Part shown: in pieces, positions 579 through 49,073 of the stretch
How the letters are laid out: each line of letters begins with the position of its first letter
Position numbering within the stretch: the first letter of the stretch is position 1
Source of the DNA: Amoebophrya sp. A120
Lineage: Eukaryota; Protista; Dinoflagellata
Length of the DNA: 64,000 bases
Assembly (NCBI GenBank): GCA_905178155.1
Contig: CAJINV010000008.1
Coordinates: forward strand, 3,621,420-3,685,419
Direction: 5' to 3'
Program-made: the position numbers and the translations under genes
Notes under the pieces: model-generated
Databases searched by the model: none
What the model saw: only the letters and a program-made list of their open reading frames with translations
What the model was told of the DNA's origin: nothing

Positions 579-1307
579 GCAACACTAGCAAGACGCCGGC
601 GGCCGCAACGGGCGGGGCCGCGGCGCTCTCCGGGTCCGCGGAGAGCAACAAGCTGCAGAACTCCGGCGAGCAGCGAGAACAGCAGGCGAAGGCCGAGAGT
701 GAGCAGAAGCAGCGGGAGCAGCAGGAGGCGTTTGCGAAGGAGATCGACAAGATGCGGGGGGATATGGAGAGAAAAAAGTTTATCACAGTCACTAATTTGC
801 AGGGTTTGCATTAGCATCACAAATTTTCCTTGTATTGCAGAAACACTAGGGAAATCCCTAATAAAGTTTGGCTGTGATGCATTTTTACGCATGACAAACA
901 GTTTTGTATTGCAAAAATGCGCATGAGTGATCGTGACGAACTTTTTTTGTTTGATAGGGGATCTGGCGCAGCTGCGCCAGGAGCTGGGCGCGGAGATCAC
1001 GCGGCGCGAGGAGGCGGAGCTGGAAAGCGAGTACAAGGACCACAAGGTCCAGGTGGCGGAGTCGCGGTGCGCGAAGGCGGAACACGAGAAGAGAACCGAG
1101 GAGCTGAAGGCCAGCGAGATGCAGCGCTGCCTCGAGTTGCTGCAGGAGGACGTGGTGAAGAAGACCCGGGAAGTTGAGCTCAAGTACCTGGAACAGGAGC
1201 GCAGGATCGCCATGCAGCAGGAGATGTACTCGAAGATGCACCGGCTGCAAAACTTCCTGCCCCCGAACATCATCCAAAAAAGTTTCCTCTCGGATATGAA
1301 TATGTGA
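579..1307 (+). CDS. 3' part of a coiled-coil protein gene (exons ~579-762 and 962-1307; 5' end upstream of the window)
   Basis: AG acceptor at 577-578. GC3-rich E/Q/K-rich frame. Removing 199 nt at the element joins ...KMRGD|LAQLRQEL... Stop TGA at 1305-1307. Confidence 0.75.
763..956. mobile_element. Introner, TIR family E; DR GGGGA/GGGGA
   Basis: TATGGAGAGAAAAAAGTTTATCACAGTCACT...AGTGATCGTGACGAACTTTTTTTGTTTGATA is an imperfect TIR. Excision restores frame. Confidence 0.85.
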
Positions 1308-3605
1308 GCCGCCGCTATTATGGCGGTGGAACGACGGAGTCGGAAGGGAATGGTTGACCTGCGAAAGGTAAAAGAATGCCACGGAAGACTGCTAGAATTA
1401 CAACCGGCAGATAAAATAAAAGATGACCACTGGAGGTGGACGCTGCTTGGTTCTAAGCTGTATTTCTTGGTTCAAGTTGAGAAGTCTACTCATCTTCTTG
1501 TTTTCCATTCTTGGGAATAAATCAGGTGAAGTGCAATCCAAAAAAGTCATGGGCCCTCTCTGCTTCCCTTCTTCAACTTATTTTTGCTCGTAGTTCTAGA
1601 TCTAGTTCTTCTTCTTCTGTATTTGTTCACACGTTGTGGATTCCTGGCGAATCCACGGGCACGGATTTATTTATAGTTCGTTGCGTAAAAAACTGTTTCA
1701 TGCTCCTTGTACAAGTGGTCACAAACACAATCTATAAAACTAATCGGCACTAATGTCTAGAACAAAACAGTAAATAGGCACTCAGGTTCTGTGGACCTGC
1801 CCCTTTGATCACACGCAGAGAATAGTAAAACACGGAAACAGTTTAGTTCATCGGATTTCTGTACGATACGTCGCTTGGAGGTCAAAACATTTGTTTCAAC
1901 ATTCATTTTCCCTTATTATAAAAAACCAAAACAAAAAAAAAACCGAAGTACATTCACACAGCAGGACTTTTTCACTCCTAGCTTCGGCAACAAAAATGTG
2001 TACTAAAAAAAGTCGAAGATACACGAGAACTTCATCACTTTTACATTTTTGGGTGTCAGCATGAGCATGAAGGATTTGATTGCGCACATTGGAATCAGTC
2101 GTCTACAGGTTTCTTGTACAATGTGAGAATCAGGATACCGCATCGTGTTCGTGACGCCGTCCTCTCGTCGGATCGTCTAGCTAGAACGCTTCCACCAGGG
2201 GACAATAAAGGGATCCGTACCGAACGTAATCGAACTTGTGATGCTGAGGTTGATGCAACGTCAATGACCGTAGAGGGACTAGAATGCCGCCCTCCGTCGT
2301 GTTAACCCTTGCCACAACAGCGGTGCTCGTGTATAAGTCTCAAACTTTCGCCGGGTGTAGGGTAATGGCGTGTTCTCACGTCGGAGAGGCGACCACACTT
2401 CCCCCTCCTAGTCGTGTGCCAGGCTGCGAACTGATGTAAACCCGCTCCTGTCTATCGAGGAATTGAGTAAGAGGCAACGCCAATCGCCACCTATCTAAAG
2501 ACTAAAAAGCTGACTCTCAAACCCGAACTCAAACTGGCACTCGCATTTTGATCTATGGCACTGGTAGTCAATGTCTATAAGTACTTACAAGAATAAGACT
2601 GTGTGTGGGTGCTGTTGTTTCACTGCAGATTGTTTCACTGCAGAGCGAAAGCGATGTCTGGATGTTGTAAGTAGCCATGATCCACTTCCACCAGCACCAG
2701 GACGATTGGTCATTTATGAAGCTGATAGACACAGATCGACAAGAAAAGATTCAGTTTCAGGTGCAGGAGATGTCAGAGATCTGTCCAGAGCCAATTTTTG
2801 GGGAGTCAGAAGCATTCGATTTTTGAGGACAAATGTTCGGTCAGGTCCATTTTGTGTCAACAGATCCATCATGAAAAAAAAGGAAACAAATAAAAGATCA
2901 ACATCGAGAAATTCATCAGCATCAAATGAGTATTGTCCACGATCGAGGAGTCGATCATACCTGATGAAGATCAGCATAGTCCAAATTCTGGATGGCTATG
3001 AGAGTGGAAACAAGGCGATCTACAGTTTCGAGTTTGTAAGTGCGATTTTTTTGTCAGGCGCAAGTCTGCGAAATTTCATGTCAAATCAAATAACTCGGTG
3101 ACTTTTTTTCTCAGCACGGCCAGAATTGAGGCCGGGTCAGAATTCAGATGAGCGGGGAGCTTTTTTTTCTGAAAGTTTGATGCTGTGCCTTGCATAAGTA
3201 AGTAAGTGATAGCCTGTTAAGATGCACAGACATGTTAGTGCTGTGTAAAATTCAACGTAAATAATCCGCAACAGCGACCGCAGTCCCCTCAAGATTCCCT
3301 TTTAGTCATCCTTGCCCGTATTGGAATTTTCTGTTACGTATTAAATAAGTATTTATACGTAGCAACATTTAATCGGAGGAGCCAGCGTTTTCTTTGTTCT
3401 CTAGACTTCTGCAGAGCCCTTTGTGCTGCACAATAAAGGCAAACAAACTGAGTTCGTAAACATTTTTTCTTCCATTTATCATTTTCTTCTCTGAGCTATT
3501 CAAGTTTTTCTGGTGTAATTTTCAGTTGGTTGCACAACTAGAAAAAACAAAAAGCCACAGCTCCAATAAATAAGTACTCATTTCTCTTTTAAATCTACTT
3601 CTATA

Positions 3606-46405: not shown

Positions 46406-49073
46406 ATGGCGAGTCCTTCGGGTACCGGTGGTGGCACTGGTACCCCCAGTAGCACTTCCTCTTCCGCCAACGGCGCGAAATCCAAGATGGCGTTAAAACA
46501 GGGGCGGGAGCAGGAGCAGAACCAGAGCGACCGTCCAGAACCCCCGCCGTCCTCGGCATCCTCCTCCACAGCCTCCACGCCGAGCAGGAGCAAAGAGACC
46601 TCGGGCGTCAAATCTTCGTGGTGCCCCCCGCGGTTCAGCTCGGTGTCCGACAATGAGGTGGAGGGCAACATCTACATGCACAACCCAAAGGCCCTGCCAA
46701 TACGGATGATCAACTGGTACCAGGTGTTTCAGACGCACTATTTGTCCCACATCTACATCGCGGTCATCGCGTTTCTCATCTACTTCGCGCCCAATGAGCT
46801 CTTCTTCGTCAGCGAGCTGGGGTACAAAGCCGTGGAAACCTTTGGATGGGTATAAAATAAATAGAAATCTTCAAAATTTGGTTTCAGATAGTCAACATCT
46901 GGATTTTTTTTCCCACTCGGATTCTCAATGTAGTTCGTTGTGATTTAGAATTTTCCATGAATGTAGTAATGATGCGCAACAGAAGATCATGCAGATGCAC
47001 CAAAGAAGTATGTTGGTGCTCTCGCGAACCAACGATTGTGCACTCTCGTGGGTTGTCAAACGGCCACTTTTTCTGTACTCAATTGATCTTTAGTACATTC
47101 ATGAATGTAAATGTTGCTGTCAAAATAAAAATCCACAGTCCCGCGTCGTTTTGGTCGTCCTGCTGCCCTTGATCCTCTACCGTTCTTCTTCGTGGGGCCC
47201 ACATTGGCGCAGCAGTGTCTATTTGATCGACTTCGAGTGTGCGGCACCCCCCGAGGATTGGCGCATGACGGTGGAGCAGACGAAGAAGATGCTGGAGAAC
47301 CAGAGAAGTTTTACAGACGAGTCAAAAGAGTTCCAGCACCGGATTCTGAATACCTCCGGTATCGGCGACGGTACCGCCTGGCCGCCCTGCATCTTGAATT
47401 CCCTCGGCGGGAAATCTGTCGCGACGAGCCGCAGCGACAGTAAAACTTCCGCCTCCTCCGGTGGGTCACTGTACGAGTACGCGAGTACGATGCAAGACGC
47501 GAGGGATGAAACCGAGACCATCGTGTTCGACATGGTGGAACGACTCCTCGCGAGGACAAAAACAAAAGCGAAAAACATCGACTTTCTCGTCGTCAATTGC
47601 TCGCTCTTCTGCCCGACACCGTCGATCTGCGCCATGATTGCGAACAAGTTCAAAATGAAGGAGGACATCAACAGCTTCAATCTGGGCGGCATGGGCTGCT
47701 CCGCCGGGGTCATCAGCATCGACTTGGCGAAGCAGCTGATACAAAACAAACCTGGGGCAACGGCGCTGGTGGTCAGCACCGAAAACCTGTCACAGAATCT
47801 GTACGTTGATATAGATCTACACGTCTTGTTTGACTACTAGTATACTTATGTTCTTGTTCAACAACACAGAGGGTCAAGTTCAAGATCCAGCTCCATGATG
47901 ACTGTTCTTTTTCAGTTGTCACTCTCACTTTCACCAGGACATTGCCGCAAACCTAATATCATGATACAACTCATCAAAGGCAAAACAATAAAAAAAAACA
48001 GTTACACGGGTAACGATCGTTCGATGATGATGCAGAACACGCTTTTCCGTTGCGGTGGCGCCGCGGTTCTGCTTTCGAGCAACAGCTACAACTACAACAC
48101 GAAGCGATTTGCAAAGTACAAACTCCTTCACAGCGGCCGCACCTTCATGACGGACGACGAAAGTTTCAAATGTGTCTACCAGGAGGAAGACAATCTGCCG
48201 AGTAAAGTTGCAAGCTGTATTGCTAGTACAACAAGAACAGAAGGTGAAGGAACAAAAGCAGAAATATCCAAAGCACAGTCAGCGACAAATAACAATATAA
48301 AACCCGCAGCCGCGGCGCCGTCAGGGGATCTGAAGGGCGTCCGTCTGCAGCGAAACATCGTGACCGTCGCTGGGCGCGCACTGACGAAGCAATTCACGCA
48401 GCTCGGCCCGAACATCTTGCCGGTCAGCGAGCAGGCGAAGACGATCGGCACCATGGTCGCGGACTACCTGTGCAAGAATTTTTTGCACATTTTGTCCCCC
48501 AAACACTTCCCGCCGCGGGTAAAGATCTACACGCCGAACTTCAAGAAGTGCATCGACCACTTTTGCATCCACGCGGGCGGCCGGGCGGTCATCGAGGGCG
48601 TGCAGAAGAACCTGAAGCTAACGGATCGGGACGTCGAGCCGTCCTTCATGACGCTGAAGAAGTGGGGCAACACGAGCAGCTATCAAATGTAAAAATGTCT
48701 GGGTCTGGAAGAATGCGCGATTTGTCATGCAGCTTTTCCATGACCCATGAAGCCTGGAATGCAGGATCTAGCATGACAGATTCTGCGCGATCTCTCTCAT
48801 GCCTATCCTGCATGACAAACTCCCTCCCGACTTGGCCAAAACTGGACCACATTTGGTAATCATGCAGCACAGATTTTTGCATGCTTCAGATTTAGCATGA
48901 CAAGTTGCATTCTTCCAGACCCAGACATTTTTACATTTGATAGCAGCTCCTCCATCTGGTACGAGCTGCAGTTCATCGAGGACTCGAAGCGCATAAAACA
49001 CGGCCACCAGGTTCTGCAGATCGCCTTCGGCTCCGGGTTCAAGTGCAACTCCGCGGTCTGGCTCAGACTGTAG
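46406..49073 (+). CDS. KCS: 3-ketoacyl-CoA synthase (FAE1/KCS-type fatty acid elongase condensing enzyme); exons 46406-46849, 47139-47800, 48002-48680, 48948-49073
   Basis: [22 protein letters not shown] (catalytic Cys), [53 protein letters not shown]. Confidence 0.95.
48681..48942. mobile_element. Introner, family A, youngest-looking copy; DR GCAGC/GCAGC
   Basis: Perfect 36-bp TIR TATCAAATGTAAAAATGTCTGGGTCTGGAAGAATGC. Interrupts the conserved [12 protein letters not shown] motif. Confidence 0.97.

Follow-up and report, generated by a model that had tools for sequence, protein, structure and literature searches.

The introner elements and their host genes

The window analysed here, a 64-kb stretch of the genome of Amoebophrya sp. 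A120, contains 31 elements of the form TAT...ATA, each 149-404 bp long and summing to 8,000 bp (GC 0.438); all 31 listed in an earlier note on this DNA were recovered. They are the already published introners of A120, known because Farhat 2021 (PMC7789003) described such introners in this organism. Three host genes, whose annotated products P0001, P0002 and P0005 are 100% identical to A120 proteins, and the elements (given without strand) are listed below; DR stands for the direct repeat and k for the number of upstream repeat bases kept.

7940..14680, + strand, host gene A: 6 elements, 4 GT-AG introns; annotated A120 protein P0001
17389..27700, + strand, host gene B: 16 elements; 3' part annotated as P0002
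46407..49073, + strand, host gene for 3-ketoacyl-CoA synthase (KCS): 1 element, 2 GT-AG introns; P0005
763..956, introner element, DR GGGGA/GGGGA
8745..9115, introner element, DR GTTTG, perfect; element plus 5 nt skipped in a transcript-like contig
12008..12208, introner element, 5' TAG variant, DR CCAGT; absent from transcript-like contigs
12300..12553, introner element, DR ACGAT/AGGAT; k at least 2 from the annotated protein
12650..12928, introner element, DR GCGGA; relative of 20822 in inverse orientation
14115..14366, introner element, DR CAGCG/CAGTG; k at least 4 from the annotated protein (AAAM); RNA support by the contig's length
14492..14641, introner element, DR TGGGT/TGGTC; AG in no register; RNA support only by the contig's length
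17875..18185, introner element, DR TGCTG; without AG
18326..18591, introner element, DR TCCAT/TCCAC; without AG; relative of 48681 in inverse orientation
18664..18948, introner element, 5' TAC variant, DR CAGTT/CAGCC
19154..19303, introner element, 3' ATG variant, DR AGTTG
19472..19771, introner element, DR CTGGA; without AG
19791..19997, introner element, DR AGAAG
20070..20288, introner element, DR GTTGT
20405..20622, introner element, DR TCCCA; GT, GC, AG in no register
20822..21225, introner element, DR ACCCG/ATGCG; without AG
22405..22627, introner element, 5' TAA variant, DR CGAGT/CAAGT; RNA piece begins at 22630 (k at least 2)
23245..23500, introner element, DR AAAGG/CAAGG; RNA piece stops at 23240 (k at least 1); GT-AG at k=4
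24876..25154, introner element, DR AGGCC; transcript-like contig skips 284 nt
26217..26543, introner element, DR GCGGA; RNA pieces stop at 26211
26673..26994, introner element, DR GAACC
27063..27343, introner element, DR CCGGA; without AG
27372..27548, introner element, DR GAGAC/GAGAA
30488..30785, introner element, DR GGAGT/GGGGA; in-frame TAG arises at k=5 (k at most 4)
30886..31239, introner element, DR CAGAG/CAGGG
37409..37590, introner element, 3' ATG variant, DR CCGAT/CCGAC; without AG
37634..37906, introner element, DR GGCTT/GGCCC
38558..38796, introner element, DR TCGCC; without AG
38857..39005, introner element, DR GCGAT; next element 4 nt away
39010..39326, introner element, DR AGCGA; upstream copy takes in the last base of 38857-39005
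48681..48942, introner element, DR GCAGC; within an 11-residue motif of 3-ketoacyl-CoA synthase

Of the GT-AG introns, put at about 16 in the earlier note, six were fixed from annotated proteins, and 14 were predicted by a noisy model, which recovered three of the six verified ones exactly. The annotation of P0001 has a different junction at 12650, and annotated proteins read into 14492 and 27063.

Anatomy and distribution of the elements

The elements are TIR mini-transposons with a 5-bp target duplication, sitting in exons and non-coding. Five, the number noted before, carry one variant terminal base (TAG at 12008, TAC at 18664, TAA at 22405, and a final ATG at 19154 and 37409); the 5-bp repeats previously described do flank the elements, but are perfect in only 18 of 31, eight others matching at four of five positions and five at three. 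When, in a second assembly, ends were called blind to the repeat (296 calls), 5-bp flanks matched at 91%, as against 24-30% for other lengths, and 229 calls had a perfect repeat. A loose scan yielded 43 candidates with scores up to 40; three block-wise dinucleotide shuffles gave 2, 1 and 7, with a top score of 17. In the end logos, positions 11-13 are occupied by A in 24-29 of the 30 elements at each end, and a T-run lies 10-15 nt inside the 3' end.

Among the BLAST matches listed, the elements form at least four multi-member groups, together with elements lacking a full-length partner, where the earlier note had at least seven TIR families; for 13 of 30 window elements, relatives in the second assembly cover at least 70% of the element's length. 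Depth in X5 reaches 10^4-10^5 over element bins, compared with about 50 elsewhere; the elements are repeated in the genome. Within families, same and opposite orientations number 34/41, 10/6, 11/15, 4/4 and 1/6, and both orientations are thus in use. TIRs, a fixed-length TSD and no coding capacity, the characters by which MITEs are recognised, are all found in these elements; a 972-bp copy contains no internal ORF above 83 aa. Neither the window nor the 150 loci contained a transposase-coding element, and the TIRs had no exact match among viral contigs. The elements may be mobilised in trans; the enzyme would be a DDE transposase, integrase-like or other, binding the GCATGACA motif that they share internally. 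Integrase-type enzymes typically leave a 5-bp duplication.

Removal from transcripts and restoration of reading frames

Ten of the 22 elements in the compared stretch are removed from transcripts, with non-canonical ends, as judged from transcript-like contigs that skip them (five by exact arithmetic, two by the contig's length, three by one border), in agreement with the removal at the RNA level proposed earlier. In particular, an X1 contig joins 24869 to 25154 (284 = 279+5), a contig gap of 307 nt equals the prediction for 8745, and a gap of 179 nt equals that for 12008, 12300 and 12650 jointly. X1, X2 and X5 are runs of unrecorded kind, and the RNA label is a tool's guess; X1 and X2 behave as RNA because their contigs leave out GT-AG introns as well and both runs fall to zero depth in the 16832-17495 bin. 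The DNA-like X5 contigs pass through elements unchanged (e.g., 8200-12674, with 0 differences) at an even depth of about 40-50. Among the matches listed, no RNA match was found for 12 of the 22 elements, nor for eight of the nine AG-less elements of the window, six of which lie within the compared stretch; X9 covers 14719-14969 only, and the evidence of removal consists of assembled contigs.

When each element is taken out with one repeat copy (5 nt), every one of the six gene regions examined regains long ORFs, as the earlier note had it. In gene B, with its 16 elements, this leaves 1971 of 2002 codons stop-free, versus 515-522 with +0, +4 or +6, and in gene A 1369 of 1376, versus 754-793; in two single-element genes, ORF length does not tell +5 from +4. 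For KCS, only +5 yields the 11-residue motif, which is present in 114 of 120 homologues. Of 24 window cases with independent flank frames, 21 fit +5, as do 82 of the 101 from the second assembly, and the A25 orthologue aligns gap-free across four junctions.

Position of the cut and splice signals

Where the repeat is imperfect, the cut can be bounded, and four cases indicate that the intron is likely N-TAT...ATA-NNNN (k=4), that is, one base, the element and four bases, since two cases demand k of at least 4 and two k of at most 4. The lower bounds come from 14115, where the annotated protein reads AAAM, and from the L030 hydratase, which requires K (VVTGK in the three closest homologues); the upper bounds come from 30488, where TAG falls in frame at k=5, and from the PseB-like junction of L064, which gives P at k=5, a residue that none of the 36 motif-bearing family members has (49 loci examined). 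This value thus has two cases per bound, with one common register assumed; one lower bound is a gene annotation of the set that departs at 12650, 14492 and 27063, and RNA pieces alone set k only to at least 1 and at least 2. Every informative case is compatible with k=4. Codon-score tests on repeat mismatches in the second assembly gave no preference at positions 4 and 5, where non-synonymous mismatches number 7 of 10 and 5 of 8, respectively.

The dinucleotide counts of the earlier note hold for the 30 elements tabulated: GT-AG is available only at 23245, GC-AG at 24876 and 37634, the same nine elements are without AG, and 20405 has neither GT, GC nor AG in any register; GA-AG options at 12300 and 30488 are to be added. 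A GT or GC donor with an AG acceptor, as in U2-type introns, is available in any register in only 3 of 30 window elements and 6 of 104 in the second assembly, where 50 of the 104 oriented elements have AG in no register. The acceptors are devoid of the conserved dinucleotide needed by the standard second step, which counts against removal by a relaxed spliceosome.

On the donor side, the earlier view that dinucleotide-type signals play no part is not supported as it stood: the best register makes the donor N-T-A-T, as compared with canonical G-T-A-(Y), so that U at +2 and A at +3 would be kept. At k=4 all 31 donors read NT and NTA, and 28 NTAT; GTA occurs in five of six verified canonical donors, and +3 is A in 40 of 92 predicted ones, against a background of 16-24%. 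In Farhat Table S4 (PMC7789003), the nine top A120 non-canonical pairs all begin with NT and the nine A25 pairs all with TT; inside a repeat, such placements are up to the aligner, possibly with a bias towards GT-like donors. Terminal variants are asymmetric with respect to sense (position 1/position 3, 1/10 at the 5' end and 8/2 at the 3' end; Fisher p=0.002 pooled, p=0.04 in the second assembly alone, in a test devised after the data had been seen). The 3' A-to-G terminal changes also fit U-G wobble pairing.

How the elements may be removed

The claim that transposon-derived introns are removed without GT/AG, with the cut set relative to the element ends, is borne out. We lean, at slightly better than an even chance, towards one relaxed major spliceosome with a fixed-register cut and an AG-free acceptor set by distance, and favour it over a second, structure-guided system. 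The terminal TAT would serve as donor positions +2 to +4 (N-U-A-U for canonical G-U-A-Y), and the acceptor would lie 4 nt beyond the final ATA, possibly helped by the T-run near the 3' end. Since the signal is shared by the two ends, an element would splice whichever way round it had inserted. The MITE-derived introns of Fritillaria borealis, taken up below, offer a precedent for such a spliceosome. More speculatively, the branch point might be the A that opens ATA, at -7 from the cut; in predicted canonical introns A is not enriched there (19 of 92). According to Farhat 2021 (PMC7789003), A120 has U2, U4, U5, U6, U1-70K, U2AF and second-step factors, U1 snRNA being undetected, and an alternate splicing mechanism was proposed there; with these parts present, a need for the second system suggested earlier is not supported.

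Such a system, non-spliceosomal or a separate spliceosome, reading paired inverted repeats and cutting at fixed offsets, is doubtful in our view. It would suit the unconserved acceptors with their many AG-less elements, the indifference to orientation, the undetected U1 snRNA (PMC7789003) and the precedent of euglenid nonconventional introns with circular products (PMC11282704), and the inner TIR is predicted to pair in 20 of 30 elements. Although equilibrium folding may mislead, the paired TAT/ATA ends envisaged as a ruler are predicted for no more than 14 of the 30 elements, with weak pairing (P<0.2) in 7 of 10 RNA-supported ones, while inner-TIR pairing is at most 0.15 in four of the latter (12008, 12300, 23245 and 26217); furthermore, the ten 5' position-3 changes, which break the terminal pair, are tolerated, and the k=4 donor mimics canonical GTA, with A25 independently using TT(A). 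The narrower form of this idea, a dedicated A120 route separate from U2-type splicing and cutting 1 nt before and 4 nt after a symmetric transposon end, is likewise rather unlikely; if true, either orientation would serve without G or AG, each new exonic insertion would be silent, and a second RNA splicing system would have co-evolved with a transposon superfamily.

A spliceosome acting in a variable register inside the repeat, where a perfect repeat gives the same mRNA whichever register is used, is less probable still: sites 1-5 nt from the IR and variable relative to the hairpin are reported in passages of Farhat 2021 (PMC7789003), annotated donors are mixed within families and some of the window's mismatches at positions 4 and 5 leave the residue unchanged, but non-synonymous ones are common in the second assembly and the informative cases all allow the single k=4. 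Retention of many elements, or use of cryptic canonical sites nearby with frame restoration partly a coincidence, would agree with the deviant annotations and with the elements lacking an RNA match, AG-less ones included, among the matches listed; it is very improbable given the gene B frame that opens only with +5 removal, the gap-free A25 alignment and the concordant flank frames. The TA-like termini and TIRs resemble those of ciliate IES, and the unrecorded run kinds would leave room for DNA excision in a somatic or stage-specific copy; this we consider scarcely credible, X1 and X2 skipping GT-AG introns too and X5 retaining the elements at single-copy depth (among the matches listed), whereas IES are absent from somatic DNA.

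Should the relaxed spliceosome be right, a spliceosome can dispense with both +1 G and AG and measure its acceptor off from the end of a transposon. This would account for the harmless invasion of exons in either orientation, and A120 gene models would become correctable by rule. The fixed register makes concrete predictions: the placement of lariat primers, the bases to mutate, and the pairing of N-UAU by a divergent U1 or U6.

Comparison with known systems

Family 38 of A120, among the Ginger-like or integrase-related TIR transposons, shares the genome and TIRs and has Copia/Gypsy-related ORFs; according to PMC12130899, it is without Ginger termini and TSDs. The MITE-derived introns of Fritillaria borealis are likewise transposon-derived and without GT/AG, and are removed by a modified major spliceosome; they have preferred end pairs, U1 and a duplicated U2AF, whereas A120 has random-looking acceptors and undetected U1 snRNA (PMC13326754 and PMC11282704). 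Euglenid nonconventional introns also combine TIR and TSD with non-canonical ends beside spliceosomal introns, but have an internal CAG/CTG pairing signal, circular products and Y|R borders (PMC11282704); in A120, known here from sequence and contigs, end pairing is not predicted for half of the elements.

The passages on A120 introners (PMC7789003, PMC12130899) describe MITE-like elements of about 240 nt, with an IR of TAT, seven variable bases and AAA, and non-canonical junctions backed by RNA-seq; those of PMC7789003 give a DR of 3-5 nt over the exon/intron border (5 bp in the legend of Fig. S19), and by Table S4 non-canonical introns make up about two thirds of the A120 total. The same passages settle on no splice position and describe no clear signature. 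The fixed 4+1 register, N-TAT donor mimicry, use of both orientations and the shared internal motif are absent from their text, and Figures 3 and S19-S25 may show some of these. In genome, IR layout, DR, repetition and removal from RNA, the window elements match these introners.

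Presence and anatomy of the elements

The introners of the window (mini-transposons acting as introns, each named here by its start coordinate) are discussed with reference to the following genes:

7940..14680 (+), gene A, annotated as P0001
17389..27700 (+), gene B, its 3' part annotated as P0002
46407..49073 (+), KCS, annotated as P0005

A strict scan for TAT...ATA with a perfect 5-bp repeat returned 24 candidates, several of them chance occurrences, and a looser scan 43, the best scoring 40; three shuffled sequences gave 2, 1 and 7, none scoring above 17. Curation gave 30 tabulated elements plus the one at 18664-18948, so that the 31 elements of 149-404 bp claimed in the earlier note stand, as do the five with one variant terminal base; the flanking N5 repeat is present too, but perfect only in 18 of the 31 (4/5 in eight, 3/5 in five). 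Among the tabulated elements the splice dinucleotide options are also as claimed (one GT-AG, two GC-AG and the same nine without AG), two others offering GA-AG; no element was called beyond 48942.

ORF and protein checks of genes A, B and KCS agree with the claim that removal of the element plus 5 nt restores the frame: with the 16 elements of gene B cut at +5, 1971 of 2002 codons are stop-free, against 515-522 at +0, +4 and +6; the same cut in gene A leaves 1369 of 1376 codons stop-free; in KCS an 11-residue motif, found in 114 of 120 homologues, is rebuilt by +5 only. The orthologue of strain A25 aligns without gaps across four element junctions, and three window exons match proteins annotated as Amoebophrya sp. 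A120 at 100%. Gene B is probably a single gene of ~1970 codons. Both annotations conflict with the RNA/ORF evidence: P0001 lacks eight residues after the 12650 element (window 12650-12956) and runs into 14492, and P0002 starts mid-gene and runs into 27063.

Tiny exons, with ~19-28 nt between element ends and an introner on both sides, occur at 19772-19790 and 27344-27371. At 38857-39326 two elements (38857 and 39010) lie 4 nt apart and their predicted introns overlap by 1 nt, because the upstream repeat of the second takes in the final base of the first; 476 nt are lost if removal is ordered and nested, 475 nt if the cuts are merged, the C-termini differing accordingly, and the ORF computation used the merged cut rather than the sequential one. 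Further downstream, a very long ORF (50581-58157) with no element called inside has what we take, by eye and from its motifs (GHYGGEQ, LMGCSS), to be a separase-like C-terminal region; the gene at 59700-61586, presumably ER lumen protein retaining receptor-like (again by eye), is interrupted by apparent GT-AG introns only. An Rfam scan of window 1-26900 gave no match, and no exact TIR match was found in the viral contigs searched.

The second assembly and the internal motif

A search with a 20-base motif from the terminal inverted repeat (TIR), over the scanned part of a metagenome collection, returned 151 stretches, all 80 of those listed belonging to one assembly (JACKZZ01...), of which 150 loci (406 kb) were analysed. 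Its elements have best identities of 75-96% to window copies; the assembly may be of the same species, and the gain is therefore in sample size more than in independence. Where element ends had been called without regard to the repeat, 229 of 296 calls show a perfect 5-bp repeat, five being the sole repeat length above chance (91% match versus 24-30%); long calls of this kind with no repeat were taken as mispairings. Independently chosen flank frames fit five bases kept in 82 of the 101 confident cases (242 scored). Element families are oriented both along and against the predicted sense strand (same/opposite: 34/41, 10/6, 11/15, 4/4 and 1/6), and inverse-orientation pairs are found in + strand genes of the window (12650/20822, 18326/48681 and 14492/38857).

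RNA polymerase II RPB1 (Pfam Rpb1_5/6) contains, at L073:4013-4985, a 972-bp element that shares these TIRs, has a perfect CGCCG repeat and encloses no long ORF. Another locus (L064:3445-4049) carries a segment, with introners, of a PseB-like UDP-GlcNAc dehydratase (best PDB match 2gn4), which has many bacterial relatives and a possible horizontal origin.

Otherwise unrelated families have in common a motif, GCATGACA / TGTCATGC, found on both strands, its nearest copy typically 50-100 nt from an element end. GCATGAC occurs inside 20 of 30 window elements (~1 occurrence expected), and the wider, strand-symmetric motif gives 55 matches in 7.7 kb of elements versus 5 in 56 kb outside; this density and symmetry would fit a candidate transposase-binding site. 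As a branch point GCATGACA was rejected because of its strand symmetry (303 sense, 320 antisense).

Removal from RNA

Four contig and read runs were compared over window 8200-28100 (22 elements); repeat artefacts of run X5 filled the joint table, and RNA support was therefore drawn from the contig piece table. Two runs (X1, X2) were assigned to RNA by an automatic guess; both skip GT-AG introns and have zero depth in a non-coding bin. An X1 contig joins 24869 to 25154, skipping 284 nt, that is, 279+5 for element 24876; within contigs, a 307-nt gap equals the prediction for 8745 and a 179-nt one that for 12008, 12300 and 12650. These last two contigs reach 14899 (14907 predicted; 14752 had 14492 been kept), so that 14115 and 14492 must have been removed, and the repeats of 22405, 23245 and 26217 each form the exact border of a transcript-like piece. 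Removal is thus supported for at least 10 of the 22 elements, the other 12 having no row among the matches listed; among the same matches, 14492 alone of the nine AG-less elements has RNA support, indirectly, by contig reach. Excision from DNA, which the earlier note had set against RNA splicing, was looked at in the DNA-like run X5 (depth ~40-45), whose contigs retain the elements and read through them unchanged, which argues against it.

In the raw-read run X9 only one fragment is covered, ~800-fold, bounded by a template-switch adapter at 14719 and by poly(A) beyond 14969. This fragment, possibly a single amplified molecule, probably represents the end of the gene A 3'UTR and has no Rfam match.

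Splice register and end signals

If the mRNA retains k bases of the upstream repeat, the RNA pieces require k of at least 2 at 22405 and at least 1 at 23245. At 14115 the annotated P0001 reads AAAM, which gives k of at least 4, although at 12650 this annotation and the RNA contig disagree. In a second-assembly locus (L030), k of at least 4 gives VTGKGALFCGG; VVTGK is found in the three closest homologues, of which the Polarella one reads VVTGKGALFCGG, and lower-ranked homologues have A or E at the position. At 30488, k=5 creates an in-frame TAG and the ORF falls from 851 to 582 codons. In the PseB-like gene, k=5 introduces a P that none of the 36 family members with the motif has at that position, and k=0 loses an M present in 31 of them (the motif is absent from 13 of the 49 loci examined, and loci of the two seed genomes were left out); this family-based set replaced 80 PseB loci, discarded since their uniform MR reflects the motif used to seed the scan. 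A single register, k=4, fits all these cases, and the intron would then be N-TAT...ATA-NNNN; no preferred register emerged at positions 3-5 when all repeat mismatches of the second assembly were scored by codon likelihood, and k=4 therefore rests on four cases. An upstream-T bias at repeat position 5 (5/6 in the window) was dropped, as it was not repeated in the second assembly.

At k=4 the donors read GTAT (8), TTAT (8), ATAT (7), CTAT (5) and TTA followed by another base (3); verified canonical donors are GTAGTC, GTACAA, GTGCTT, GTACTT, GTATAA and GTACGT. In a noisy model whose donor prior is GT only, +3 is A in 40 of 92 predicted GT introns (another 38 of the initial 130 contained remnants of elements and were excluded), against a background of 16-24%. 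Neither G at +1 nor an AG acceptor is enriched, and predicted canonical introns give no support to an A at -7 as branch point. The nine top A120 pairs of Table S4 in Farhat et al. 2021 are all NT-, the nine A25 pairs all TT-, and the A25 inverted repeat starts TTA (PMC7789003); aligner preference may contribute to these pairs.

Variants at the 5' end change the first T once and the third base ten times, and those at the 3' end the last A eight times and the third-last A twice; given this sense asymmetry (p=0.002 pooled, p=0.04 in the second assembly alone, in a post hoc test), the ends appear to be recognised by their sequence in the transcript. Folding predictions pair TAT with ATA in 14 of 30 elements; for the inner TIR the figure is 20 of 30, and terminal pairing is below 0.2 in seven of the ten RNA-supported elements.

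Mechanism

We lean towards one major spliceosome, shared with canonical introns, which would tolerate a missing +1 G and a missing AG; the terminal TAT would supply donor positions +2 to +4, and the acceptor would be measured from the element 3' end. According to the accessible text of PMC7789003, A120 retains U2, U4, U5, U6, U1-70K, U2AF65/35, Prp16, Prp18 and Slu7; that a spliceosome is able to adapt in this way is indicated, in the part available, for Fritillaria (PMC13326754).

The second, structure-guided system proposed in the earlier note explains the random acceptors well and has, in the text available, a precedent in euglenids (PMC11282704), but leaves unexplained both the donor mimicry and the weak predicted pairing, and we consider it distinctly less probable than the shared spliceosome. 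A register varying within the repeat appears more doubtful still, k=4 fitting every informative case; retention of the elements, or the use of cryptic sites, is hard to credit, and excision from DNA, with X5 contigs running through the elements, is the least credible of all.

Relation to known systems

The elements are real, and their class is already known in A120 itself, since it was described by Farhat et al. 2021, whose accessible text (PMC7789003) gives the A120 inverted repeat as TAT, seven variable bases and at least three A, with repeats of 3-5 nt, counts 29,850 family members, reports U1 snRNA as missing and an alternate splicing mechanism, and treats the place of splicing with respect to the hairpin as variable or unknown. 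U1 is present, in the part of PMC12005148 available, in other Amoebophrya strains, which have canonical introns. In Gozashti et al. 2025 (PMC12130899), most families seen in rows 1-21 of 58 A120 families are classed as TIR DNA elements, their annotated sites being mixed; an integrase-related TIR family is also described. The accessible part of PMC11453091 adds nothing on mechanism, and our literature search on these introns found no paper that settles it. The putative fixed 4+1 register, the donor mimicry and the orientation independence, not found in the available text of the Farhat and Gozashti papers, are to that extent additions to them, and make the mechanism directly testable.
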